64,000 nt of DNA from a virus (IMGVR_UViG_3300046792_000467), one strand, 5' to 3'. Counted from the stretch's first letter, positions 4,873 through 61,532 are shown. Numbers and translations: made by a program. Notes: generated by a model from the sequence alone, not told the origin.

Positions 4873-7800
4873 CTAGAACGGCAACGTCATCGCCGCCATC
4901 ATCCGGATGGCGCTCGGTAGTACCTGCTCGGCGTTCGCGACGTAGTCCGCCCCGCACGCAAACGCCCCGACGGTCATGTACCGCGGCGGCGGCGCGTTCG
5001 GGACCATGTCGTCGCCCGATAGGTGATGCTCTCCGCCGACCGAGAGGAGCTCCTCCCAGGCGGACTCCTCGGGCTCCTCGATCTCGATCGGCTCTGCCTC
5101 CCGCACGGGCGTTCTACGCGCGCCCGCTGGCCTCCGGCGGACGACGGTGCCCCCCGGAGTGACGACGACCTGTCCGTCCTTGACGGCGCTTTTCGCGATC
5201 GCAGCCGCAACCTCTGGCGCCGGGAGCGCCACCTGGGCCCGCAGCGAATCGGACAGGAGGCCCGCTTCGATGACCTCGTCGGCGCTCTTCTCATCGAGTC
5301 CTTCCTCAATGACCAACCGGCGAAGCGCGCCTTCGTCCATGTCGCGATCGATACGGACGATCCGCTGGCTCGCTCGCCGGACCCCGTTGAGCCAGACCAT
5401 GCGAACGTCTTTGCCGGTGAGCTCGGCCGCCATCCGTGTTTCGATCTCGGCGGGGCACGGGAAGATCCAGGCCATGTACGAGAGCATCACGGAGTAGAGC
5501 ATGCTGTACTCCGACGACCGCTTCGGGCCGCGTTCGACGGGGATCCCGTGCCGCTTCACGTGCTCCCACATGCCGCGGGCGGCGCGACGGACGACGCACT
5601 CCGAATCGCGCCCGTCGTAGCTGAGAGCGAACTGCTCACGAAACTCCTTCGTGTGCGAGATGGTGTGCTTCGAGAGATCGAGTCGCAATGTGCTCGCGTC
5701 GAAGAGCCGGCTTTTCAGCACGTTGGGGTCGATCTCTTCGATGCCGATGTCGGGGAAGGCGTTGCCGAGGAGCCGCTCGATGGTCGCGTCCCGCTTCGAT
5801 CGCTTCTTCGTGGTCCCCTCCTTGAGGGCCTCTTTCGGATCTTGGACCCCGTACTCCTCAAGCTGCTCGACCAGGAACTTGCGGGTCCGCTCGATGCTCT
5901 CGCGCGCGTCCTTGTCTCCGCTGGCTGTGCGCAGTTGCTCGATCGTCTCGTAGTACTCCTTCAGGAGCTCTCGGGCCTGCGCGACGCGCCCGAGGCGCTC
6001 CTCGGTGGCGAACTCGAGCTCCTTCGTGATCGTGTCCTTTCGGACCTTCGTGAGCTTCTGTCCGGTGATGGCCCCGAGCCATTTCACGAACCAGTCCCAT
6101 TCGTCGCGGTGGTTCTCGTAGATGTCCCGTACCGGATCGTCGAGGACGAACCAGTCAGGGAGCTCTTCTGCGGGGCTCACGCCGATGACGGAGGCGTCGC
6201 GCCATGTCGCCTGAAACTCGACCCACTCCTCGTCGTCGAGGTCACTCTTCCCTCTCGGTCGCTCGATGTCCTCGAAGGCCCGGACCGTCGTCGTGTACCG
6301 GTCGGCGTTCAGTTCGAGCCAGGTGATGAGGTACTCCTCGTCGTGCGCCCGGATGTCCTTGCCGACGGTCGCCGACGCATCGAACGGGGCCCATCGGAAC
6401 TTGTGCTTCGTTCCTCGCTCGAGACCCTCGAGCATCTTCAGGAACGCGCCCCACCATCGATCGAGCCCGAACGCTTTCGTGGGGGAGGTGCGAAGCCATC
6501 GGGCGCGCATGTGCTCGACCGTCTCCCAGAGCTTCTTCGCGTGGATCGGTGCGAGCGCTGGATCCATTTGCTTGCGAGCGAGGACCGGCAGCGGCGGCAC
6601 GACGACGGCACGACGTGCGCCCGTCTTATCCCGCACCTCGACGGTCACCTCTCCGTTCGCGGACGAGGAGCCGCGAGCGAACCAGGGAAGGAGTGAGCTC
6701 TCGCCGATGCCGTAGTTGATTGGCCACGGATCGTAGTTTTCCTGGAGCCACGGATTCTGCTGGACGAGGTCCCGCTTGTCGCCTGGGAGGGCGAGGTTCG
6801 CGAGCTTCCGCCCCTTCGGGGTATCTCTCCGGAGGTTCACCCGGGAGAACTCGATCCGTTCCTGCTCTCCCGTGCGCTCGCCGGCTGCGACGCCCGCGGG
6901 GGGCGGCCGGAGCCCTGCGTACGCATGCACCGGCGAGGGGGGCGAGATGCCGTCCCGGACCTCCGATCCCGGCGGTACCGCCGGTCCCTCCGCCCCGACG
7001 GCCACGAGCCCCCGTCCGGTCGGGACAACGGCGTCAGGGGCCACCTTGGGCGACTGGGCCGGTAGCCCCTCCCGTACGAGACGCTCCAGCTCCCGGGTCG
7101 CCCGCGCCGGGCGCCGTTGGGGCCTCGGGGGCGCCCGAGGCCGCTCCGCTCGCGCAGGGACCGCGTACGTGTCGATGACGGGCTTGGACGCCCTCACGGG
7201 CGGCTGGCGGGGCGCCTCGGTGTCAGCCGGTGCCGGCGGCTCGTGGGCGGCGCCCGCGATGAAGTCGAGAATTTCATTCTGCCCGGAAAGCGCCTCTGTG
7301 CTCGTATCGGCCTCGACGTAGGTCTCGGTGGTCAGGATCGACTCGTGACCGAGCATGTGTTGGATCTCCCGGAGGGGTTTGCCCTTCCGGGACATGGCCG
7401 TCGCGGCGAAGTGCCGAAACGCGTGCGCGTGCACGAGGGCCTGCTCGTCCTCGGTGAACCCAGCCTTCTTCGCGATGCGCTTCAGCAGCGCGTCAGCGCC
7501 GTTCCTGGTCATCGGTCGCCGGTAGTCGGGCCGCGTGCTCCTGTTCGGTTTGAGCTCCTGGTAGTTGTGAGTCGAGTTCGCTCCCCAGAAGTGCACGGGA
7601 GGGAAGAGCGGCGCGTCGGGCTCTTCGGAGAGCAGCTTGTAGCGCCACCCGATCGCGCTCGGAGCGAGGTAGTGCAATCCCTTCGGATTGTCGCTCTGCG
7701 TCCCCTCGAGCGGCGCGTGCCGCGAGAGCTCCACCTGGAACGCGGTCAGGGCTTTGAGAGCGTACGGCGGAAAGGGGAGCCGCTGATGAAACCCGCGCTT

Positions 7801-8952
7801 CCTGACGAGCTCTACCGCCGGTGGGTTCGATCGCCCATCGTACCAGCCGGGCCACCGCATCACATCACTCGCCGGCGGCCGGTCCCGCCGAATGCGCAGG
7901 CTCTCGGTCACGCGCGCGCCCGTGAGGACGAGAAACCAGAGGAGGGCTGCGTCGCGCTTATCGGTGAGCTGCGGCCCGTCTGCGGCTTGCAGCATCCGCT
8001 CGACGAGCTGCGGGGACAGCTTCCCCTTCCGGGCGCGCCCGGCGCGCCTGTCGGCGCCGAGGCCCACGCGCACTCGGGCCCCGACGTCGGCGAACACGTT
8101 GTGGCGGATGAGCGCGCCCTCGCCGCTCGACGTGTCGGCCTCCATGAGCGCCTTCCAGAACGCGGAGAGGGCCGCGATCCGAACGACGATGGTCGTGCGC
8201 CCGACGGCGCGGGGGCGAGGCAGGGAGTAGGAGAAGATCTCGTCGAGTGGCACCTCGTGCCTCTGCTCTCCGTCAGGCACGATCACTACGAAGGTGGAGA
8301 TCCCGATGCGTGGGTCGTCGCGGCGGAGCTCCTCCATCGTCGGCGAGCGGACAAGGAGCCCATGGAGCACCATGCGACCGAGTTCGGCATGGAGCCACGG
8401 CCGATCGATGACGGCGCTGTTGCTCCGGGACGGGTGGGCGCTCGCGAGCCAGACAGGGACCTTCGTCACGATGCTCGTGATGTCGGTCGTGCCGAGTTCC
8501 TTCACGATGTCGTAGAGCGCGAGGCGCACGCGCTGGTCGCCATCGCGGAGCTTCTCTCCCTCGAGCGAGAAGGTTCGTGTCGCGAGCCACTCGACGTAAT
8601 CCTCTGCGTCCTTCCTCGTGACCTCAGGCGGCGAGACGACGCGCCCGTACTTCGTGGCGATCCACTCGAAGAACTCGGTCAGCGCCGCGGCGTAGACGCG
8701 TCTCGTCGCCGGCGAGTAGGTGCCGATGTACGCCTCGTACTCCGTCGACCCCTGCTGTTCCGATCTGCCCGTGAACCGAGAGAGGACGGAGGCGTACCGG
8801 TGGGAGGCCGCCTTGTCGCCGCCGGCAAAGGCCGTCGTCCACTTCTCGAGCGATTCCGGTGCGGTCTTCCCCCGGAAGAGGGCCAGCTCCGGCCGGTTCG
8901 GTTTGGGCATAGCGTTAACATAAACGCTCCGGCTTCCCGTTCCTAGCGCCAT
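4873..8952 (-). CDS. giant tyrosine-recombinase-domain protein (1359 aa)
   Basis: N-terminal SAM-like core-binding region (YAAALTEFFEWIA...AEDYVEWL). Catalytic motifs are LVLTGARVTE (box I Arg) and HAFRHFAATAM...LGHESILTTETY (HxxR...H...Y). These are followed by a Pro-rich linker and a C-terminal extension of about 750 aa with no motif I recognise. Confidence 0.85.
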   Translation of the reverse strand: MALGTGSRSVYVNAMPKPNRPELALFRGKTAPESLEKWTTAFAGGDKAASHRYASVLSRFTGRSEQQGSTEYEAYIGTYSPATRRVYAAALTEFFEWIATKYGRVVSPPEVTRKDAEDYVEWLATRTFSLEGEKLRDGDQRVRLALYDIVKELGTTDITSIVTKVPVWLASAHPSRSNSAVIDRPWLHAELGRMVLHGLLVRSPTMEELRRDDPRIGISTFVVIVPDGEQRHEVPLDEIFSYSLPRPRAVGRTTIVVRIAALSAFWKALMEADTSSGEGALIRHNVFADVGARVRVGLGADRRAGRARKGKLSPQLVERMLQAADGPQLTDKRDAALLWFLVLTGARVTESLRIRRDRPPASDVMRWPGWYDGRSNPPAVELVRKRGFHQRLPFPPYALKALTAFQVELSRHAPLEGTQSDNPKGLHYLAPSAIGWRYKLLSEEPDAPLFPPVHFWGANSTHNYQELKPNRSTRPDYRRPMTRNGADALLKRIAKKAGFTEDEQALVHAHAFRHFAATAMSRKGKPLREIQHMLGHESILTTETYVEADTSTEALSGQNEILDFIAGAAHEPPAPADTEAPRQPPVRASKPVIDTYAVPARAERPRAPPRPQRRPARATRELERLVREGLPAQSPKVAPDAVVPTGRGLVAVGAEGPAVPPGSEVRDGISPPSPVHAYAGLRPPPAGVAAGERTGEQERIEFSRVNLRRDTPKGRKLANLALPGDKRDLVQQNPWLQENYDPWPINYGIGESSLLPWFARGSSSANGEVTVEVRDKTGARRAVVVPPLPVLARKQMDPALAPIHAKKLWETVEHMRARWLRTSPTKAFGLDRWWGAFLKMLEGLERGTKHKFRWAPFDASATVGKDIRAHDEEYLITWLELNADRYTTTVRAFEDIERPRGKSDLDDEEWVEFQATWRDASVIGVSPAEELPDWFVLDDPVRDIYENHRDEWDWFVKWLGAITGQKLTKVRKDTITKELEFATEERLGRVAQARELLKEYYETIEQLRTASGDKDARESIERTRKFLVEQLEEYGVQDPKEALKEGTTKKRSKRDATIERLLGNAFPDIGIEEIDPNVLKSRLFDASTLRLDLSKHTISHTKEFREQFALSYDGRDSECVVRRAARGMWEHVKRHGIPVERGPKRSSEYSMLYSVMLSYMAWIFPCPAEIETRMAAELTGKDVRMVWLNGVRRASQRIVRIDRDMDEGALRRLVIEEGLDEKSADEVIEAGLLSDSLRAQVALPAPEVAAAIAKSAVKDGQVVVTPGGTVVRRRPAGARRTPVREAEPIEIEEPEESAWEELLSVGGEHHLSGDDMVPNAPPPRYMTVGAFACGADYVANAEQVLPSAIRMMAAMTLPF

Positions 8953-32369: not shown

Positions 32370-32605
32370 GTATCTCTTGGAAGAGCTACTTCACGACAGT
32401 CGCGATCTACGCCGCACTGCTCTCCCCGATTGCGATCGCGGTAGCGTGGTCTCAGGGACATGCAGCTGGCTACGACGATGCTTGGAAGGAGTGCCTGGCG
32501 GCGCGCCGAGACATCTGTACCCGCATGGACCCAAAGCCACAGGTCGGCTTGCTAAAATCGCTTGACACCCGCTGCGGCAGGCTGCATCCTCCTGCTTCAC
32601 CATGA
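32366..32605 (+). CDS. small membrane protein (79 aa)
   Basis: GTGA overlap; N-terminal hydrophobic helix YFTTVAIYAALLSPIAIAVAW. Confidence 0.45.
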   Translation: MSISWKSYFTTVAIYAALLSPIAIAVAWSQGHAAGYDDAWKECLAARRDICTRMDPKPQVGLLKSLDTRCGRLHPPASP

Positions 32606-32766
32606 AACGTCGAAAGTTAACTCCACCCGAGATCCTCCGCGTCGCCGCGGAAGCCGAGGTCGACCCCCGGTCTGTTCGTAAGTGGCTCGCGGGTGGCAAC
32701 AAAATGATGCCCAACGTCGAGGCGCGGATCGTGCGGGCGGTAAAGACGCTCGGGTTTAGCCCATGA
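32602..32766 (+). CDS. 54-aa helix-turn-helix-like protein (below the ORF-track size cut-off)
   Basis: Hand-translated: MKRRKLTPPEILRVAAEAEVDPRSVRKWLAGGNKMMPNVEARIVRAVKTLGFSP. ATGA overlaps with both the upstream gene and the effector gene. Confidence 0.5.
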   Translation: MKRRKLTPPEILRVAAEAEVDPRSVRKWLAGGNKMMPNVEARIVRAVKTLGFSP

Positions 32767-34514
32767 CAAAAAGCCGCAACGACCCCCGAGGGGGTGTTCC
32801 TGTGAAAAAAGGGCGCTTCCATTCGCCCAAAAACGGGGCCAACGGCCACCGTAAGGACAGACGTAGGTCGTCCACCACAACTACCAGGAACACCCCCTCG
32901 GCGGCCGATGCGGCTCGCCGCGAATGGCTGCTCGAGATAGCCGCCAAGTGCAACCTTCCAGTGCCTGACGCCGCCCTGTCGTCGACCGGGGGCACTTGGC
33001 AGCTAACGAGCCGCGGTCGGGCGATTGGGCGTCTCAAAGCCGAAGCTGTAGAGAGCGGGAAAGCGGATCTCGTCGAGAAACTCTGTGAGCAGGTCTTCGT
33101 TGTGAAGGCCGACGTCGGGCGTGCTCTCGATGCGCCGTGGCAGGAGATCAGCGGCAACCTACACGCGGCCCGCGAGCGTATTGACGCGATCGTCAATGCT
33201 TGCACCCGTGCGCTCATCCTGCATGAACTTAGCGGTGGGGCGGCCCCGAACCTCTACGAGATAGCCACGAAAACGGACGCCCAAATGCGTGCGGCTGCGG
33301 CTATCAAACTCGAAGAGCTCAATCGCAAGAAACCGCCGAAAGACGAAGATGCTGAGACGCGTTCCAAACGAGAGAGCACCGCTGCCCGACTCGCGACGAC
33401 GGCGGCGTTTAGCTTCTCGGGGGCGACGCGCAGCATGCTCACGCAACGCGCCCAGAGCTCTTTCATCAAGTGGACCAAGCACAAGCGCGACGAGCGATTC
33501 CCCCACGCGACGCGAGGGCAACCAATTCCATTGCGAGCCGCCGACGGATGGGGGCTCGCTCTTGAGAAGGGGAGCTTCGTTCTCGAGTTCAAGATCGGCG
33601 AGGGGGAAACTTGCCGGTATCGCGTCAAGGTTCACCCTAGCGGCGGAAGTGCCATCGCCGCGGCCCGCGAGCTTGCTGAGGGCAAGGCCAGCAGGCGCGA
33701 CGCCAAATTGTTTTGGGACGAAGCGCGAAAGCGATGGATCGTCGCGATGACGATGGGGCGCCGGCGTCAGCCGCCGCCTGATCTCGGTGCGAACCCGCTT
33801 ACCATGGTCGTCCGGATCGGTATGCGTAAATTGCTCGGCGCGTGGTTCAGCGACTCGTCTTACGCGGAGATTGTGGCTGGCGGGCGCACAGGTTCGACAT
33901 TGCTCGCGCTGCTACGGCGAAAGCAGCAGTTACTCGATGCTAAACGCGTTCGCCAACGAGGTATCTCTGAGATGGCGCGTGGACCGAATGCGGTGCGCAA
34001 GAAGAACCGTAGAAAGCTCGGTGCGCTCGGGCGAGCAGAGCGCGCATTCGTCGATACGACCTGCAAACAGATAGCCGCCAACGTCGCCAACGTCGCCGCT
34101 CACAGCGGAGCAACTCGCATCATCGTACAGGTCCCCACAAAGCCGTTCAGTGACGAGGACGCCAAATATCTGGATCCGTGGCTCCTCGCGTGTATCCGCC
34201 GGTTTCCTTTGGGTGAGCTGTCGTCTCGCATCGTCTGGGCCCTCGACAAGCGAGGGCTACCGAGCGAGGTGAACGACATCGGCTACGACGCCTGCACTTG
34301 CCCGGACTGCGGCAAGATTGACGGGGGAAGCCACGATCCTGCCAAGCATTATTTCGACTGTACCAACGAAGCGTGCGAGCTTGAAGGCAACGCCGATTAC
34401 ATCGCGGCGATCAACGCCATGGCCCGTTCGGGGGTGCCTACGGAGGATCTCAAGCGTATGCTCCAGGCCGCGCACCTTATCGCCCGTGAACTACGGAAGA
34501 AGCGGGCTGCTTGA
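32763..34514 (+). CDS. compact type V CRISPR effector (Cas12/TnpB-family, 583 aa), subtype unassigned
   Basis: C-terminal CTCPDCG...FDCTNEAC zinc ribbon followed by GNADYIAAINA (RuvC-III-type). TRIIVQVP sits at the RuvC-II position and VVRIGMRKLLGAWFSD at the RuvC-I position. A co-oriented CRISPR array lies 0.7 kb downstream. Confidence 0.8.
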   Translation: MTKSRNDPRGGVPVKKGRFHSPKNGANGHRKDRRRSSTTTTRNTPSAADAARREWLLEIAAKCNLPVPDAALSSTGGTWQLTSRGRAIGRLKAEAVESGKADLVEKLCEQVFVVKADVGRALDAPWQEISGNLHAARERIDAIVNACTRALILHELSGGAAPNLYEIATKTDAQMRAAAAIKLEELNRKKPPKDEDAETRSKRESTAARLATTAAFSFSGATRSMLTQRAQSSFIKWTKHKRDERFPHATRGQPIPLRAADGWGLALEKGSFVLEFKIGEGETCRYRVKVHPSGGSAIAAARELAEGKASRRDAKLFWDEARKRWIVAMTMGRRRQPPPDLGANPLTMVVRIGMRKLLGAWFSDSSYAEIVAGGRTGSTLLALLRRKQQLLDAKRVRQRGISEMARGPNAVRKKNRRKLGALGRAERAFVDTTCKQIAANVANVAAHSGATRIIVQVPTKPFSDEDAKYLDPWLLACIRRFPLGELSSRIVWALDKRGLPSEVNDIGYDACTCPDCGKIDGGSHDPAKHYFDCTNEACELEGNADYIAAINAMARSGVPTEDLKRMLQAAHLIARELRKKRAA

Positions 34515-35149
34515 ACGAAAGGAAGGTAACCTTGGACGACGGACCCCCCATGAACAAAAAAGAAGCAATCAAAAGGTTTGGAACCGAAGACCTGAGTCAG
34601 GTGCTATCCATACTCATCGAAGCGCGAAACAAGGTAGACGTCGCTGAACACGAGTTCTTGCTTCTCGTTGAGGCTTTCGAGGTGAGCGAAATTTGGCGCG
34701 CACTTTCGAGCGGTACCTTCGAGCAGGCACTGGACCTCACACATGTCTGCGATTCAAAACGCTACACACGGTGGCGTCGCGCGCGGGCTGAGCTAGGCGA
34801 CAACGTCGTCTCTGAAGTAGGAGTCTCTGGATCTACTCAGGCTGTGCGTATCGAAAGCCCCGCCAACAGGCAGAAGGCGATCGACACCATGCGTGCGACC
34901 GTAGCCAAAGAGGGCGCAGTAATAAGCGAGCGCACCGCTCGCTCGATCGTGGCTAGGCTCTTGCCCTTCAAATCGCGAGTACTAGACGGTGCCAAGCGGT
35001 CGGCTGAGCTCGAACGAGAGAACGCCGTCCTTAGGCGGCGCGTGAAAGAGTTAGAGCAAGAGGTCGCCGTGCTGCGCGACCGGTTACGCGGCAAACCGCC
35101 GCCCACGCCAAAAACCAGCAAGAATCGGAGGCAAGCTCGACCATCATGA
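34511..35149 (+). CDS. unknown protein between effector and array (212 aa from TTG 34511, or 199 aa from ATG 34550)
   Basis: ORF track; overlaps the effector stop; C-terminal coiled coil (ELERENAVLRRRVKELEQEVAVLRDRL) and a basic tail. Confidence 0.5.
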   Translation: MNERKVTLDDGPPMNKKEAIKRFGTEDLSQVLSILIEARNKVDVAEHEFLLLVEAFEVSEIWRALSSGTFEQALDLTHVCDSKRYTRWRRARAELGDNVVSEVGVSGSTQAVRIESPANRQKAIDTMRATVAKEGAVISERTARSIVARLLPFKSRVLDGAKRSAELERENAVLRRRVKELEQEVAVLRDRLRGKPPPTPKTSKNRRQARPS

Positions 35150-35207
35150 CGACCCTCTCGCAAACCGTCTTTTAAATACGCGAATTTGCTGTTCGCGTAC
35201 GTGGCGG
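35150..35207 (+). promoter_or_regulatory. putative CRISPR leader
   Basis: Locally AT-richer stretch (TCTTTTAAATACGCGAATTTGCTG) directly upstream of repeat 1. The degenerate terminal repeat is at the opposite end of the array. Confidence 0.4.
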
Positions 35208-36674
35208 CTCGAGAGCGACGTAACGAAGTTGTGGGAACGGAAGTGGCATTCTCGGCCATCGCGGCGCGCGTGCGCACCCCCTCGAGAGCGACGTAACGAA
35301 GTTGTGGGAACGGAAGTTCAGGAGGGCGCGGATCGGCGACAGGTAGAGCACCGCTCGAGAGCGACGTAACGAAGTTGTGGGAACGGAAGATCGTACCGAT
35401 GACCGGACGCACCCAGTCACGAAGGCTCGAGAGCGACGTAACGAAGTTGTGGGAACGGAAGGACGGGTGACCCCAGGCGTCGCGGATGGCGTTCTCAACG
35501 GCTCGAGAGCGACGTAACGAAGTTGTGGGAACGGAAGTCGCCCGCGGCCCCCGTCACGAACGTGTTCGGGAGCTCGAGAGCGACGTAACGAAGTTGTGGG
35601 AACGGAAGATGGTCGGCGCGACCGAGGTGCGCATGCCGGCGCGGGCTCGAGAGCGACGTAACGAAGTTGTGGGAACGGAAGTTGCTCCGACGAATGATTG
35701 TGTCGGCGCGCTCGTGATCTCGAGAACGACGTAACGAAGTTGTGGGAACGGAAGCAGGTAATCAAGTCGTACGAATCGGAGCCGGCGGACCTCGAGAGCG
35801 ACGTAACGAAGTTGTGGGAATGGAAGCGCCTATGCGCCCCGCCACCTCCCGGCGAGTCATCCTCTCGAGAGCGACGTAACGAAGTTGTGGGAATGGAAGG
35901 CGAGTCACTGGGTCCTCGCTGGCGGCGACGAAGTTGTGGGAATGGAAGGCAGGAGTTTGCGCAGGCGCAGCGCGCTCCGTGCGCGCCGAGAGTGATATGA
36001 CGAAGTTGTGGACATGGAAGATGGCCTCCGACGTGTCCTCCGTCGTCGTGGTCTTCGTCGAGAGCGACATGACGAAGTTGTGGACATGGAAGTGACTAGC
36101 CCACGGAGTGCGCGCCGGAGGTTCGCGGTGGTCGAGAGCGACATGACGAAGTTGTGGACATGGAAGATAGTCAGCGGTCCTGCCGTCACTCCGGTCACCG
36201 CGGTCGAGAGCGACATGACGAAGTTGTGGACATGGAAGGCGCTGGTCCGCGAAAGCGCAAGGGATCACGAAGAGGGTCGAGAGCGACATGACGAAGTTGT
36301 GGACATGGAAGGAGAACAGCGAAATTCGTCGGGTTGTCGACCAGCATGGAGGTCGAGAGCGACATGACGAAGTTGTGGACATGGAAGAGGCCGCGTCCGG
36401 GTTGTTCGGCACGCGTCCCGCCTGAGTCGAGAGCGACATGACGAAGTTGTGGACATGGAAGCAGCCGAACGCGAAGCTCGGGCGGTTTCCGAGGCTCGCG
36501 CGGGTCGAGAGCGACGTGACGAAGTTGTGGACATGGAAGTTCCGCGCACCCGGCAGATTCTGGAAACGCACGTCCGGTCGAGAGCGACGTGACGAAGTTG
36601 TGGAAATGGAAGGCCACGATGGCGGACACGTCTGCTAGACCGAGAGCGACGCGAAGAAGTTGTGGGAATGGAAG
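35208..36674 (+). CRISPR. CRISPR array: 21 repeats of 36 nt (one truncated) and 20 spacers
   Basis: Repeats 1-10 are CTCGAGAGCGACGTAACGAAGTTGTGGGAA[C/T]GGAAG. Repeats 12-20 are GTCGAGAGCGAC[A/G]TGACGAAGTTGTGGA[C/A]ATGGAAG. The terminal repeat is degenerate. Full spacers are 35-42 nt and all differ; the other two are the roughly 24-nt remnant in the truncated 48-nt unit at 35900-35947 and the 26-nt last spacer. Confidence 0.95.
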
Positions 36675-36753
36675 GTCATGCGGGATGTGCATTGGCGCCG
36701 TGAAGGCGGCGCTCGGTGGGACCTAAGTTGGGCCCGGCGAGCGAAACTATACG

Positions 36754-36795
36754 GCTGCTCGAGGCCTATAACGTCGAGACAAGGCCTCGAGCAGC
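36754..36795 (+). terminator. 13-bp perfect stem-loop downstream of the array
   Basis: GCTGCTCGAGGCC-(16 nt)-GGCCTCGAGCAGC read directly; only a weak U-tract (TAGTT) follows. Confidence 0.4.
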
Positions 36796-39473: not shown

Positions 39474-40043
39474 GTGGATCGACGCTGGCTTCTCGGGGGT
39501 CTTCTGATCGCCAGCGGCGTTGGCCTGGCCGCGCTCGCCACCCGACGGCCCAAGATCACCGCCGCCTCCCGGGTCCTCCTGATCGGCGACAGCCTCGCGC
39601 TCGGGCTCACGACTCCGATGAAGCAGCTGGCCGAAGAGTCCGGGGTCTCCGGCTTTCTTGGCCACGGCATCGTCGGGACCCGGATCCCCGACTGGGCCGG
39701 GTCCGACTGGCTCGACCAGGCGCTCGTCGACTTCGAGCCGACGTTGATCTTGGTATCGCTCGGGACGAACGACGAGAAGACCGCGCCTGGCGCCGTCGGA
39801 CGCGAAGAGCCGTCGTTCCACGATCTCCTCGGGAAACTCCAAGGAACGGGCGCGCAAATCGTTTGGATTGGCCCACCGGAACTTCCGTTCCCACGCCAAG
39901 GCGTGTCGGACATGGTCAGAGCGGTCGTGCCTCACTACTTCGATAGCGAGCAGCTCGACATCCCGCGTTCACCCGACGGGCTTCACCCGAACGCAGCGGG
40001 GTACGCCGGATGGGCCGGCGCCATCTGGCAATGGCTCACGTAG
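39474..40043 (+). CDS. SGNH/GDSL hydrolase with N-terminal signal/anchor
   Basis: LLIGDSLALG (GDS block), SLGTNDE and DGLHPNAAGY (DxxH) blocks. Confidence 0.75.
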   Translation: MDRRWLLGGLLIASGVGLAALATRRPKITAASRVLLIGDSLALGLTTPMKQLAEESGVSGFLGHGIVGTRIPDWAGSDWLDQALVDFEPTLILVSLGTNDEKTAPGAVGREEPSFHDLLGKLQGTGAQIVWIGPPELPFPRQGVSDMVRAVVPHYFDSEQLDIPRSPDGLHPNAAGYAGWAGAIWQWLT

Positions 40044-45022: not shown

Positions 45023-46282
<1,260 letters not shown>

Positions 46283-47610: not shown

Positions 47611-49105
<1,495 letters not shown>

Positions 49106-54889: not shown

Positions 54890-57004
54890 ATGGCTAGCTG
54901 GCTATCCATGTCCGACCGAGATGCGGGGTCTCCCGAGTGCCCGAGGCTTGTCCTCTGCCTGATGGTGAAGAACGAGGAGAAGATCATCGAGCGGTGCCTG
55001 CGTTCGGTTCTTCCTCACGTTGACGGGGTCGTCGTGTGCTGGAACGGCACCGACGAGACGCGCGCCATCGCGAACCGCATCCTCTCAGAGTGGGACCGCG
55101 ACGCGGCGTTTCGCTCCTTCCATTTCGAGTACCACGAGTGGGTGAACTTCGGACACAACCGATCGCTGTCCGCGAAGGCCGCGAAGGGATGGGTCAGGGA
55201 AATGCATCGGGAGTGGCCCCTCGACTCCACCTACCTCCTCTTCATGGACGCGGATATGGAGCTCGTTGTCGAGCCGGGCTTCGACCGGAAGATGCTCACG
55301 GCGCCGGGGCACTACCTCATCCAGCTGAACCACGGCGAGTTCTACCCGAACCTCCGTCTCGCGCGGCTCTCTCACGACTGGCGCGCGGTCAGCGTCACAC
55401 ATGAATACTGGGCGGCGACGCCGGACATCGGTGACCCTCCGGAGATCGGCCGGCAGTACATGTGGCTCCGCGATCACGACGACGGCGGCTCGAAGAGCGA
55501 CAAGACCGAGCGGGACATTCGTCTCCTCGAGCAGGGGCTCATCGACGAGCCAGGAAACGTCCGCTACATGTTTTACCTCGCGCGGGCGTACGCGGACAGT
55601 GGGAAGCACGAGCAGGCCGTTGCGCTCTACCGCAAACGCCGCGACGCGGGAGGCTGGGATCAAGAGGCGTGGTACGCGCATTACAGGGAGGGGCTGTCCC
55701 TCCTCGCGCTCGGACGGGAAGCGGAGGGGGTCGGTACCCTCGTCGCCGCCTACCAGCGGCGCCCGTCGCGGGTGGAGCCGCTCGTGAACCTAGCGTCCCA
55801 CCATAGAGAGAGGGGACGCAATCACGCGGCGCTCCTATTCGCTCGACAGGCGAGCAAGATCCCGCTCCCGAGCACCGGTCTCTTCGTCTGGGCAGATGCG
55901 TACCAGACGGCTCCTCTGAAAGAGATTGCGATCTCTGCCTACTACACGGAGCACCAGGACGAAGGGATCGCTGCCGCAGAAAAGCTCATTGGCGCCCGCG
56001 ACTGCGATGCGCATACGCAAGCCCACATGCTTCAGACGCTGAGCTTCTATGTGAAGCCGATGCTCGGGCAGGCCAACCGCATGGGCGTTTTTGCCGTATC
56101 CGAAAAGCTCCGGACGTCGTCCGCAAAGTTCCTCGGGCTCACCGAGCCGAACACCACCGAGTACGTCCCGAAGAACCCGGCCATCGTCACGTACCGCGGC
56201 ACGGTCTACGCCAACCTCTCGCTCGTCAACTACTACCACGAGCGCGGAGTCGTCTTCGCTCCGAAGGATCCAGACGGGATCGTTCGCACGAGGAACGTCG
56301 TCGTGCGCCCGATGGAGCCTCCGTTCGTCGGCGACGTGGAGACGACGCCTCTCTGGTGGCCCAGCGGCTGGAATCCCGATGTTCATGTTCGCGGGCTCGA
56401 AGATCAGCGATGGGTCGTGCACGAAGATCGGATCTGGTTTACCGCGACGTGCTTTCATCCGGCCGGGCGCCCCGAGGTCGTCCTCGGCAGGCTAAACACG
56501 ACCGTTCGCGACATCGAGTTCCTCACGACGCTGAAGTGCCCGCTCGCCGGGCCGTGCGAGAAAAACTGGGTACCGTGGGAGACGGGCAGGGGGCTGCTGC
56601 TCATCTACGGGTTCGATCCGTTCACATTGCTGCGGCCTGACTGCGTCACCGGAGAGTGTGAGGTGTACTCCCGCTCTCCCTCCCCCGTGAACGCCTCCTC
56701 CTGGCGCGGCGGCACGCCCCCAGTGAGAGCCCCATGGGGACGGTGGGTGATGCTCGTCCATGTCGTGGCGCACTTCGATGATCATCGTGTCTACATGCAC
56801 CGATGGGTGGAACTCGCCGAACACCGACCGATCAGTCGTTGGAGCACTCTCGTGGCTTTTGGCCACGTCGGCGTCGAGTACGCGACCGGGCTACTCGACA
56901 AAGGCGACACAGTTCTCGTCGCCTTCGGTTCCGAAGAGCGCGAGGCATGCTGGATGGAATTCGACTGGAGCACGATCGATAAATTGCTAGAGGAGAGAAA
57001 ATGA
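54890..57004 (+). CDS. family-2 glycosyltransferase with TPR region and large C-terminal domain (alternative start 54908)
   Basis: N-terminal [28 protein letters not shown]...DADME (GT-A DxD-type); TPR-like [25 protein letters not shown]. Confidence 0.65.
54892..54907. promoter_or_regulatory. pair of GGCTAGCC-type boxes
   Basis: GGCTAGCT-GGCTATCC read directly; lies between the first ATG (54890) and second ATG (54908) of the GT2 ORF. Confidence 0.4.
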
Positions 57005-58326
57005 TACTCGGGATCCCGACTCTGAATCGCTACGACCTGCTCGATAGGCTCATCGCCTCCGCGGAGGCCGGAACGGTGAAGCCTGACCGTTACGTCATTA
57101 TCGACAACGGAGGGAAGTATCGGCTTCCTGAGGCATTTCGTGCTCGCGACGACTTCGAGCTCGTGTCCCCGGGGAAAAACCTGGGCGTCGCGGCGTCGTG
57201 GAACCTCTTACTCGAGATGGCCGACGCCGATTCGATCGTGATCTCGAACGACGACATCGAGCTTCAACCGGATGCGCTCGAGAAATTCGCGGACGCATTC
57301 GAGTCCGGGCACGCGTTCATCGGCGCCTGCGGTGGCTGGGCGCTCTTCGGCCAAGCGCCCTCCGTTGCGGAGAAGATCGGTCTCTACGACGAGAACTTCG
57401 GCATGGCGTACTATGAGGACTGCGACTACTTGCTCCGTCTCCGCGCTGCCGGCATTCCCGTTCACGACCTCGGCTACATCGGGGCGCACGTCGGGAACGC
57501 TTCGACCCATGGCGGGACAGCGGAGGAGCAGGCTCTCGTCGCTCATAGCCGGGAGCGGAACTACGCCTACTTCGTCGCGAAGTGGGGCGCCGATAGCCCG
57601 CGCTGGGGCAATCCTCACGTGAAGAACTTCGCTGAGCCGTTTGATGGCATGCCTCCGCGCGGCTGGGCCAACAGGACGAACATGCGCGACATCATTGCGC
57701 CGATGCGCTGGGATGTCCTGAACTACATCGCGAAGAAGATCGGCGCGAAACGGTATCTCGAAATCGGAGTCGCGGACGGCTCTTGCATGCGTCGGATCGA
57801 GGTCGAAGAGAAATGGGGGGTCGATCCCAATCCGCAGCCGGGAGCCGTGTCCGCCTCGACGATATTCGTGCCCCGAACGAGCGACTTTTTCTTCGAGCGG
57901 CTTGCCTCGACATCGGGGCAATTCGATCTCGTCTTCATCGACGGCGACCATCGTGCCGAGCAGGTCTATCGGGAGGTACATGCAGCGGTGACGGTCCTGA
58001 GCCCGAAGGGCGTCATCTGTCTCCACGACTGTAACCCGCACTCGGAAGAGATGCAGCAGGTGCCGCTCGCCTCCGGATGGCAATGGACGGGTGATGTCTG
58101 GAAAGCCATCGCGCGTCTTCGGAGCGAGGAGGAGCACCGCGTACGAGTCATCCCGTCGGACTACGGAATCGGGATTGTGCTCCCCGGACGCCCTTGTTCT
58201 GCACCAAAGCTCCCTGCCGAATGGGACCGGTTGCTCTGGCGAGATCTCGTTGCGGGGCGCCGGGAGATCCTCGGTCTCATCGCTCCAGGGGAATGGCGTG
58301 AATACCTGGACAGTCAGCTCCAGTAG
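57001..58326 (+). CDS. fusion of a GT2 glycosyltransferase and a class I SAM-dependent methyltransferase
   Basis: N-terminal [13 protein letters not shown]...VIIDNGG...ISNDDIEL. C-terminal YLEIGVADGS...DLVFIDGDHRAEQVYRE...GVICLHD. Confidence 0.7.
   Translation: MILGIPTLNRYDLLDRLIASAEAGTVKPDRYVIIDNGGKYRLPEAFRARDDFELVSPGKNLGVAASWNLLLEMADADSIVISNDDIELQPDALEKFADAFESGHAFIGACGGWALFGQAPSVAEKIGLYDENFGMAYYEDCDYLLRLRAAGIPVHDLGYIGAHVGNASTHGGTAEEQALVAHSRERNYAYFVAKWGADSPRWGNPHVKNFAEPFDGMPPRGWANRTNMRDIIAPMRWDVLNYIAKKIGAKRYLEIGVADGSCMRRIEVEEKWGVDPNPQPGAVSASTIFVPRTSDFFFERLASTSGQFDLVFIDGDHRAEQVYREVHAAVTVLSPKGVICLHDCNPHSEEMQQVPLASGWQWTGDVWKAIARLRSEEEHRVRVIPSDYGIGIVLPGRPCSAPKLPAEWDRLLWRDLVAGRREILGLIAPGEWREYLDSQLQ

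Positions 58327-61532
<3,206 letters not shown>

Follow-up and report, generated by a model that had tools for sequence, protein, structure and literature searches.

The phage locus and its components

The window analysed here is a stretch of 64,000 nucleotides of viral DNA (IMGVR_UViG_3300046792_000467). It carries a type V CRISPR-Cas locus in which a Cas12 effector gene, a second conserved protein gene (the partner) and a long CRISPR array follow one another on the + strand. A small open reading frame (ORF) precedes the effector, and together the four elements would form one rightward operon. The locus is a real, rare and uncharacterised phage type V variant. An earlier note, made from the sequence alone, had called it minimal. 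This is correct in that adaptation genes are missing, but not in that a second conserved protein gene lies between effector and array. The features are as follows.

32602-32766 (+): 54-aa ORF, putative small helix-turn-helix (HTH) regulator; its stop overlaps the cas12 start via ATGA
32763-34514 (+): effector, 583 aa, Cas12f lineage, degenerate RuvC; identified with PADLOC, a profile search against the PDB, and AlphaFold2 (AF2) plus Foldseek
34532-35149 (+): partner gene, about 205 aa, with conserved homologues; alternative starts at 34511 and 34550
35150-35207 (+): leader, 58 nt, from the partner stop codon to the first repeat
35208-35899 (+): array part A, 10 variant-1 repeats and spacers 1-9
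35900-35984 (+): array junction, with short spacer 10, a truncated 22-nt repeat (35927-35948) and spacer 11
35985-36674 (+): array part B, 9 variant-2 repeats, a degenerate terminal repeat (36639-36674) and spacers 12-20
36754-36795 (+): perfect 13-bp inverted repeat (GCTGCTCGAGGCC...GGCCTCGAGCAGC), read from the sequence, downstream of the array

Closely related loci come from JGI (L004 and L008), Logan (L001-3) and the ENA (L006); with the window they make five close loci. Effector and partner ORFs are intact over these five loci at 51-64% identity, with many invariant columns.

The effector belongs to the Cas12f lineage

The 583-aa ORF at 32763-34514 has the zinc ribbon and RuvC-III-type motif that the earlier note had read in it. 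The ribbon cysteines C513, C516, C533 and C538 (CxxC...CxxxxC) are encoded within 34299-34376 and are followed by NADYIAAINA. Searches with the single sequence give weak matches only. The effector matches a Cas12f1-like TNB family in Pfam (E 2e-4, under the curated cut-off), guided_TnpB in NCBIfam (E 2e-4) and AsCas12f among the PDB sequences (E 3e-4). PADLOC gives Cas12u3 (E 2e-12) and Cas12f (E 6e-10).

Searching 1.84 billion representative proteins exhaustively with HMMER yielded 183 relatives of 450-650 aa. A family profile was made from 46 of these 183, and the AF2 model of the effector was built on the same alignment. Against the PDB, the profile matches AsCas12f over nearly its full length (E 5e-65), followed by Un1Cas12f (about 1e-31) and the dCas12f of a sigma-E system (9n9c; 1e-13). 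Cas12m2 (8hhl/8hio) is matched at E 9e-4 over about 70 residues, which comprise the zinc ribbon only, and Cas12j in its C-terminal region only (E 2e-7 to 1e-6). The AF2 model has a predicted local distance difference test (pLDDT) score of 88.7 and a predicted TM-score (pTM) of 0.81. In a Foldseek search of the PDB with this model, AsCas12f ranks top (1e-20) and ranks 1-15 are all Cas12f. The 9n9c dCas12f (1e-12) and Cas12m2 (1e-11) stand below the Cas12f entries. Of 74 matches at E <= 0.001, the best 50 are all of Cas12, TnpB or Fanzor type.

Since profile and fold both match AsCas12f, the effector belongs to the Cas12f (V-F/V-U3) lineage and, as judged from alignment and predicted structure, is a genuine type V Cas12. 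The profile and fold checks thus agree on a miniature type V effector, as the earlier note had supposed. Of its label "Cas12f/Cas12m-like", the first half stands; the second does not, as Cas12m is matched in the zinc ribbon only. Membership in Cas12m, suspected from the size and the non-canonical RuvC, was ruled out by the same profile and fold evidence, which places the effector with AsCas12f. Cas12o/p, Cas12j, Cas12g and Cas12k were likewise ruled out, their profile and Foldseek matches being weak and partial.

The AF2 model and the alignments predict the domain order WED/REC/RuvC/zinc ribbon. At the N-terminus, about 110 extra residues form a disordered basic tail and a small alpha/beta unit. 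The protein sequence of this basic tail is conserved in L004 and L006, in favour of the ATG at 32763 as the start over the publicly called GTG.

Two of three catalytic carboxylates are replaced

The RuvC-III motif, a TnpB/Cas12 hallmark in the earlier note, would suggest an ordinary Cas12 nuclease. This reading is not supported by a comparison of the whole active site with AsCas12f (the D225 numbering has the 10-residue tag offset of the PDB sequence removed). In RuvC-I, the family motif 'vvHrG' aligns to 'gIDlG' of AsCas12f, and R351 (33813-33815) falls in the column of D225. In RuvC-II, 'IIVQVP' aligns to 'IQMEDL', so that Q456 (34128-34130) replaces E324. In RuvC-III, 'NADY' aligns to 'NADY', and D545 (34395-34397) corresponds to D401. 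The triad R351/Q456/D545 retains one of the three metal-binding carboxylates. R351 and Q456 are invariant in the close family, and the segments 'MVVRIGMR' and 'IVQ[VI]P' are unchanged between this effector and three homologues of 54-64% identity.

None of 130 full-length relatives has Asp in the column of RuvC-I, where 76 carry His, 40 Arg and 5 Asn. Glu occupies RuvC-II in 99/130 and Asp occupies RuvC-III in 107/130, and the R-Q-D combination is the mark of the subclade to which this effector belongs. The first Asp of an RNase H-fold nuclease is the residue that bridges both metal ions. With Arg351 in place of the RuvC-I Asp and Gln456 in place of the RuvC-II Glu, the effector is therefore probably no DNA cutter and probably binds DNA instead. 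A precedent is Cas12m2, whose His-Asp-Asp triad binds one Mg. It does not cut DNA and silences transcription by tight binding, and restoring its triad to Asp-Glu-Asp (DED) does not rescue cleavage; other Cas12m clades carry HQK triads (PMC10442227). The alignments would add a loss of the RuvC-I Asp that is independent of, and convergent with, that in Cas12m.

A conserved partner gene lies between effector and array

The earlier note had placed the array 0.7 kb downstream of the effector. This interval is not a gap; it holds the conserved partner gene (34532-35149), in which the main novelty of the locus lies. Its start is a TTG at 34532, with a ribosome binding site (AAGGAAGG) ahead of it at 34519-34526. 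In L001-3, L004, L006 and L008, the interval from effector to array likewise holds a homologue (40-66% identity), so that the partner is found in the same position in 5/5 close loci, window included. Distant homologues (26% identity, E 5e-10) adjoin the effector in three of four IMG/VR loci (L009, L011 and L012).

The AF2 model of the partner (pLDDT 82) is all-helical, with a C-terminal coiled coil of 38 residues (156-193 in a 212-aa numbering). Searches of Pfam, NCBIfam, PADLOC and PHROGs returned coiled-coil noise only, with no sigma-70, nuclease or NTPase match. Foldseek of the model against the PDB and BFVD gave nothing significant and no sigma-like fold. Its weak matches fall on HTH regions of ParB/Spo0J/Noc proteins (prob <= 0.44, best E 1.4). 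Scanning IMG/VR with the partner found nothing, and a partner-based scan of JGI metagenomes found coiled-coil look-alikes only, with no effector nearby.

The CRISPR array is long and its spacers are unique

Repeat finding and fuzzy search located 20 full copies of a 36-nt repeat in 35208-36674 and a truncated 22-nt copy at 35927-35948, between the two parts of the array. These make up the 21 copies of the earlier note. The first ten copies are of variant 1 (CTCGAGAGCGACGTAACGAAGTTGTGGGAACGGAAG) and the next nine of variant 2 (GTCGAGAGCGACATGACGAAGTTGTGGACATGGAAG), followed by the degenerate terminal copy. The truncated repeat at the junction suggests that two arrays once fused or recombined. 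All 20 spacers are different. They are mostly 35-42 nt long (two are of 26-27 nt) and have a GC content of 55-78%, much as the earlier note had described them; the co-orientation of array and effector that it reported is also seen. As the repeat-spacer unit varies in length between 71 and 78 nt, no reading frame is kept and the array is not a coding tandem repeat. Long ORFs called across it in a mechanical ORF list are repeat artefacts.

In the same phage from samples SRR26077553 and SRR26077546 (L019:1-608 and L020:1-608, compared with window 36093-36425), spacers 13-17 are missing. The difference is a deletion of five repeat-spacer units. The array is thus polymorphic between samples through loss.

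The array is probably read as part of the operon

The leader of 58 nt contains the motif CTCGCAAACCG, which also occurs in the L008 leader, and a promoter scan found no sigma-70-like promoter at the leader. In L004 and L006, the first repeat starts only 7 nt past the partner stop codon, which implies that the array is co-transcribed with the operon. Every close locus has its array downstream of the effector and in the same orientation, and the degenerate repeat marks the distal end of the array. The perfect 13-bp inverted repeat behind it may be a hairpin that ends or processes the transcript; the terminator scan missed this hairpin because it has no T-run. In type V systems generally, the 3' end of the repeat adjoins the guide. 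The 7-nt gap, the lack of a promoter, the distal degenerate repeat and the downstream hairpin therefore point to an array that is transcribed on the + strand together with the operon genes, so that the repeat 3' end adjoins the guide here as well.

The genes called over 22.8-35.2 kb are all on the + strand, and the locus indeed sits at the end of a long rightward block, as the earlier note had it. The 4-nt coupling (ATGA) of the 54-aa ORF to the effector is likewise present, although the HTH assignment that went with it is weak (NCBIfam BldC, E 0.026). With tblastn, no homologue of this ORF was found beside the effector in the other loci, and by this comparison it appears specific to this phage.

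Repeats of the close loci share a 3' end and lack a detectable anti-repeat

The repeats of the close loci have diverged, and they share a purine-rich 3' end (...GTGGnAnnGGAAG). The individual 3' ends are:

window: ...GAAGTTGTGGGAACGGAAG
L004: ...GAAGGTCGTGGTAGTGGAAG
L006: ...GAAGGTCGTGGAAGTGGAAG
L008: ...GCAGTAGAAGTGGAAG
L001: ...GTTGTGGGTAGTGGAAG

RNAalifold predicts 0 internal pairs for nine repeats of the family, and single repeats fold no better than shuffles. An RNAduplex scan of the whole window for an anti-repeat gave local scores within the GC-rich background. Scans for Watson-Crick/GU runs in the window, L001, L004, L006 and L008 gave no candidate that was consistent in position. The earlier note, which had seen no anti-repeat in the flanks, is thus upheld for the window and four other loci. 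Rfam gave no match at the gathering threshold in the window and none at E <= 1 in the locus. The genes are packed so closely that the intergenic space is too small for an anti-repeat, and no obvious place is left for the gene of a trans-activating RNA (tracrRNA). Given that the repeats lack internal structure, a partner RNA that escaped the scans is conceivable.

One candidate was considered and set aside. Over 13 nt, the segment CTTCCGTTCCCACG at 39882-39895 (+) is perfectly complementary to the variant-1 repeat at its 3' end, where an anti-repeat would pair. It falls within a GDSL-lipase-like gene (39474-40043), 3.2 kb past the end of the array. With about 0.05 matches expected and no counterpart in other loci, we take it as chance.

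The family may be virus-associated

Arrays adjoin the effector in all five close loci and in four distant IMG/VR loci. Their repeats are related through a purine-rich 3' end, and their spacers are unique. The IMG/VR loci have mini-arrays of 3-12 repeats. Close relatives of the effector were absent from IMG/VR, and GenBank phages offered only a TnpB match of 24% identity. For the wider family, two scans of 185,579 GTDB species genomes with narrow family motifs found no member, and the same kind of motif scan found four in IMG/VR. Narrow as these scans are, they suggest that the effector family is virus-associated.

One of the distant loci, L012 (IMGVR_UViG_3300033233_000001), is on a sequence of 297.7 kb, the size of a jumbo phage; it has a distant effector, a mini-array of 5 repeats and a partner homologue upstream. 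In L006 (218-960), the module lies directly downstream of an Acb2/Tad1-hairpin gene (of the anti-CBASS/anti-Thoeris sponge family) and a DUF3310 gene. Going by this gene order, the L006 module is part of a phage counter-defence neighbourhood.

Comparison with known systems

The effector resembles Cas12f (V-F; AsCas12f1, formerly V-U3) in its best sequence and fold match, its domain order, its miniature size and its repeats of 36 nt, whose 3' end is purine-rich and unstructured. It differs in having Arg in RuvC-I and Gln in RuvC-II instead of the canonical Asp-Glu-Asp triad, and in its roughly 110 additional N-terminal residues. Unlike Cas12f loci, this one is phage-borne, has a conserved partner gene, lacks cas1, cas2 and cas4, and gave no anti-repeat in the scans above.

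Cas12m (V-M; Cas12m2 has 596 aa) is similar in size and in its non-canonical RuvC triads (HDD and HQK clades). It uses a crRNA-only guide and provides a functional model for binding without cutting (PMC10442227). However, it belongs to another lineage, with similarity confined to the zinc ribbon, and it has no partner gene. By this comparison, the resemblance is convergent. The dCas12f-sigmaE and CRISPR-linked dCas12f systems of Bacteroidota (PMC13472631) share with the locus a Cas12f-derived effector, nuclease-dead there and probably so here, and a second protein alongside. There, the effector is truncated at the C-terminus, while the RuvC-III D545 and the ribbon are kept here. Their partner is an extracytoplasmic function (ECF) sigma factor, whereas the partner described here has no sigma domains. 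They use single omega-like guide RNAs and have mostly lost their arrays, in contrast to the 20-spacer array of this locus, and they reside on Bacteroidota chromosomes and not in a high-GC phage.

Compact phage effectors with an array and no adaptation module are also found in CasPhi/Cas12j, in Cas12r of the Thermus Lalka phages and in MvCas12m of myxophage MV-1. Cas12r targets competing integrative elements, and its interference needs D238. These proteins differ from the effector by intact DED triads, by the lack of a partner gene, and by other repeat lengths and lineages. TldR has no CRISPR array and uses a single guide of the omega-RNA type next to a host regulon gene, unlike the multi-spacer array on this phage. 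The locus thus lacks defining features of V-F (a canonical triad), of V-M (full-length homology), of dCas12f-sigmaE (a sigma factor, a C-terminal truncation and loss of the array), of TldR and of Cas12j.

The closest description is that of the provisional group V-U24 (Altae-Tran et al. 2023, PMC10691335). Like V-U24, the family has a non-canonical RuvC-I (0/130 Asp), and its conserved helical partner would fit the description of that group. As for an HTH, the partner shows ParB/Noc-like Foldseek matches only (prob <= 0.44). As far as searched, the main text of PMC10691335 contains no viral description and no experiment on the group, and the subclade of this effector has also lost the RuvC-II Glu. 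Judged from a one-sentence description, the wider family is probably V-U24, and we found no mention of this group in other papers of the literature searched. The novelty that the earlier note saw in the effector is accordingly qualified: a matching group is named in that one sentence (PMC10691335). The 2025 CRISPR-Cas classification lists V-C, V-M, V-O and V-P as dead type V subtypes, and the locus type is not among these. A 2026 preprint claims the first phage Cas12m; this is a different protein (610 aa, DED triad, 8-spacer array).

A proposed model of guided binding without cleavage

We propose that the locus is a phage-borne, adaptation-less type V system in which a CRISPR RNA (crRNA) guides DNA binding without cleavage and the partner assists. 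On the evidence from alignments and gene order, we consider this probable, though well short of certain. In this model, the array would be transcribed with the operon and cut into repeat-spacer crRNAs. The crRNA-loaded effector would bind complementary high-GC DNA without cleaving it, and the bound complex would block transcription or replication of its target. Such a block is shown for Cas12m and Cas12c. The likeliest targets would be competing mobile elements or prophages, with host genes as the alternative. The coiled-coil partner may assist the bound complex as a co-factor or serve as its output module. The likely use for the phage would be the exclusion of competing phages or integrative elements, as shown for Cas12r of Thermus phages, or the silencing of host genes.

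Several points weigh against this proposal. Cas12f enzymes normally need a tracrRNA, and the absence of tracrRNA-type pairing in repeats and flanks, as far as the scans reach, is unexpected for a Cas12f descendant. No protospacer was found in the window (where the earlier note, too, had noticed no spacer match), in about 14 kb of extra sequence from the same phage or in the other fetched loci. GenBank phages gave none either, PLSDB plasmids none beyond one 30-nt match at E 0.1, and IMG/VR none for the 5' 22-mers of spacers 1-3 only. The comparison with phages, plasmids and metagenome viruses, which the earlier note had expected to reveal targets and a protospacer-adjacent motif, returned no target within this scope. 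The high spacer GC fits targets in the host or its other mobile elements. Between samples, spacer loss was the only change seen, with no gain, and the assemblies break at the array. The partner could also be simply a regulator of the locus. Lastly, E465 and D466 are invariant directly after the RuvC-II strand. A relocated catalytic acid, such as one of these two, is possible, and rearranged yet active sites are documented in TnpB (PMC10691335).

Such a site would make the effector a nuclease still, with a non-canonical or rearranged RuvC (His or Arg in RuvC-I, or acids from elsewhere) that cleaves DNA or RNA. Like CasPhi or Cas12r, it would be engaged in conventional interference against competing elements. 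D545 and the zinc ribbon are kept, and the prevalence of Glu at RuvC-II and Asp at RuvC-III (99 and 107 of 130) suggests that the site is under constraint and not decaying freely; Cas12r, a phage protein of similar size, does cut. However, the metal-bridging first Asp is absent from 130/130 relatives, and in this effector the Glu of RuvC-II is gone as well. In Cas12m2, whose RuvC-I residue is His, DNA is not cut even with the DED triad restored (PMC10442227). We regard an active nuclease as unlikely. A rather improbable alternative is that the effector serves as an RNA-guided recruitment platform and not as a roadblock, placing the partner at the target. There, the partner would attract RNA polymerase, with activation as in dCas12f-sigmaE, or keep it away; it might also spread along the DNA or call in a nuclease of the host. 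The strict synteny of the partner over the close loci and its presence in three of four distant ones argue for it, as does the predicted dimerising coiled coil with a helical domain and a faint ParB/Spo0J/Noc-like match (prob 0.44, E 1.4). Precedents are dCas12f-sigmaE (PMC13472631) and Cas12m with Cas3 (PMC10910872). Yet the partner has no sigma-70, nuclease or NTPase match in the libraries and no significant fold match. In addition, 20 unique spacers, none of which match the phage itself, resemble defence or competition more than gene regulation.

The locus might instead be a decaying relic, or a decoy that soaks up host guide RNAs or Cas proteins. The missing catalytic residues, the missing adaptation module and the deletion of spacers 13-17 in two samples would agree with this, and a phage-borne inactivated Cas9 has been proposed as an anti-CRISPR (PMC10910872). 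Against it stand effector and partner ORFs that are intact over five loci of 51-64% identity, repeats that have changed along with the effector yet retain a shared 3' end, long arrays of unique spacers and a well-folded AF2 model of the effector. Relic or decoy is thus a very improbable reading. In a more far-reaching form of the guided-binding proposal, effector, partner and array would constitute a phage-specific two-protein RNA-guided system and a type V subtype of its own. Catalysis would have been lost convergently with Cas12m, and the partner, as a coiled-coil protein of a new kind that interacts with DNA or RNA polymerase, would be delivered to crRNA-specified sites, perhaps without a tracrRNA. 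The phage would thereby reprogramme or silence rivals or the host instead of cutting their DNA. We offer this more specific version, read from sequence features, as a tentative possibility.

Naturally nuclease-dead Cas12 systems (V-M, V-C, dCas12f-sigmaE and TldR) are a recent and active topic. To our knowledge, the characterised ones are all chromosomal or plasmid-borne. With the locus, a further dead Cas12 lineage would join them, one found on viral and metagenomic contigs in the public data searched, together with an obligatory accessory protein of unknown fold class. If the effector is dead, the long array shows that the phage invests in programmable binding. This poses the question what a virus gains from targeting DNA without cutting it, and what the partner contributes. 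A natural dCas12f of roughly 540-580 aa, perhaps guided by a short crRNA only, would also be an attractive compact scaffold for CRISPR interference (CRISPRi) or recruitment.

Phage context

The flanks are phage-like, as the earlier note had judged. PHROGs matches in the window include a 974-aa collagen-like tail fibre (E 1e-114), a lytic transglycosylase, two endolysin-type genes and methyltransferases. At 4873-8952 (-), an unusually large protein of 1359 aa has a tyrosine-integrase domain in its N-terminal part only (PHROG match at residues 251-575; Pfam Phage_integrase). Precomputed Pfam matches of the called genes, which cover about 1-45.6 kb (the array itself excepted) and 47-64 kb of the window, contain no Cas1, Cas2, Cas4, TnpA or Tn7 families. 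Over these stretches, they bear out the absence of such genes that the earlier note had reported.

JGI contigs of 96.6 and 120.6 kb carry the same sequence (100% identity), and the larger contig sets the size of the phage genome at about 120 kb at least. The only GenBank phage homologues of the lysin and of one methyltransferase are from actinophages (30-37% identity), which is weak evidence for a host among the Actinomycetota. GC content at third codon positions (GC3) is 0.70 in cas12 and 0.63 in the partner gene, compared with 0.79-0.86 in three neighbouring or nearby genes and 0.71 in the endolysin gene. Going by this composition, the module may have been acquired more recently than the phage backbone.

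Upstream of the window, the same phage encodes DnaJ-domain and Cpn10/GroES-like proteins (L016:1151-1771 and 6658-6951). Collagen-like (Gly-X-Y) tail-fibre genes at 45023-46273, 47611-48522 and 58327-61251 (all -) contain tandem repeats of 9, 18, 57 and 114 nt, which account for most tandem-repeat rows outside the CRISPR array. A fused glycosyltransferase-methyltransferase of 441 aa is encoded at 57001-58326 (+). It adjoins the gene at 54890-57004 (+) for a 704-aa protein with a glycosyltransferase match and faint TPR matches, and a third glycosyltransferase lies at 262-1377. These glycosyltransferase genes may have host-surface or DNA-modification functions.

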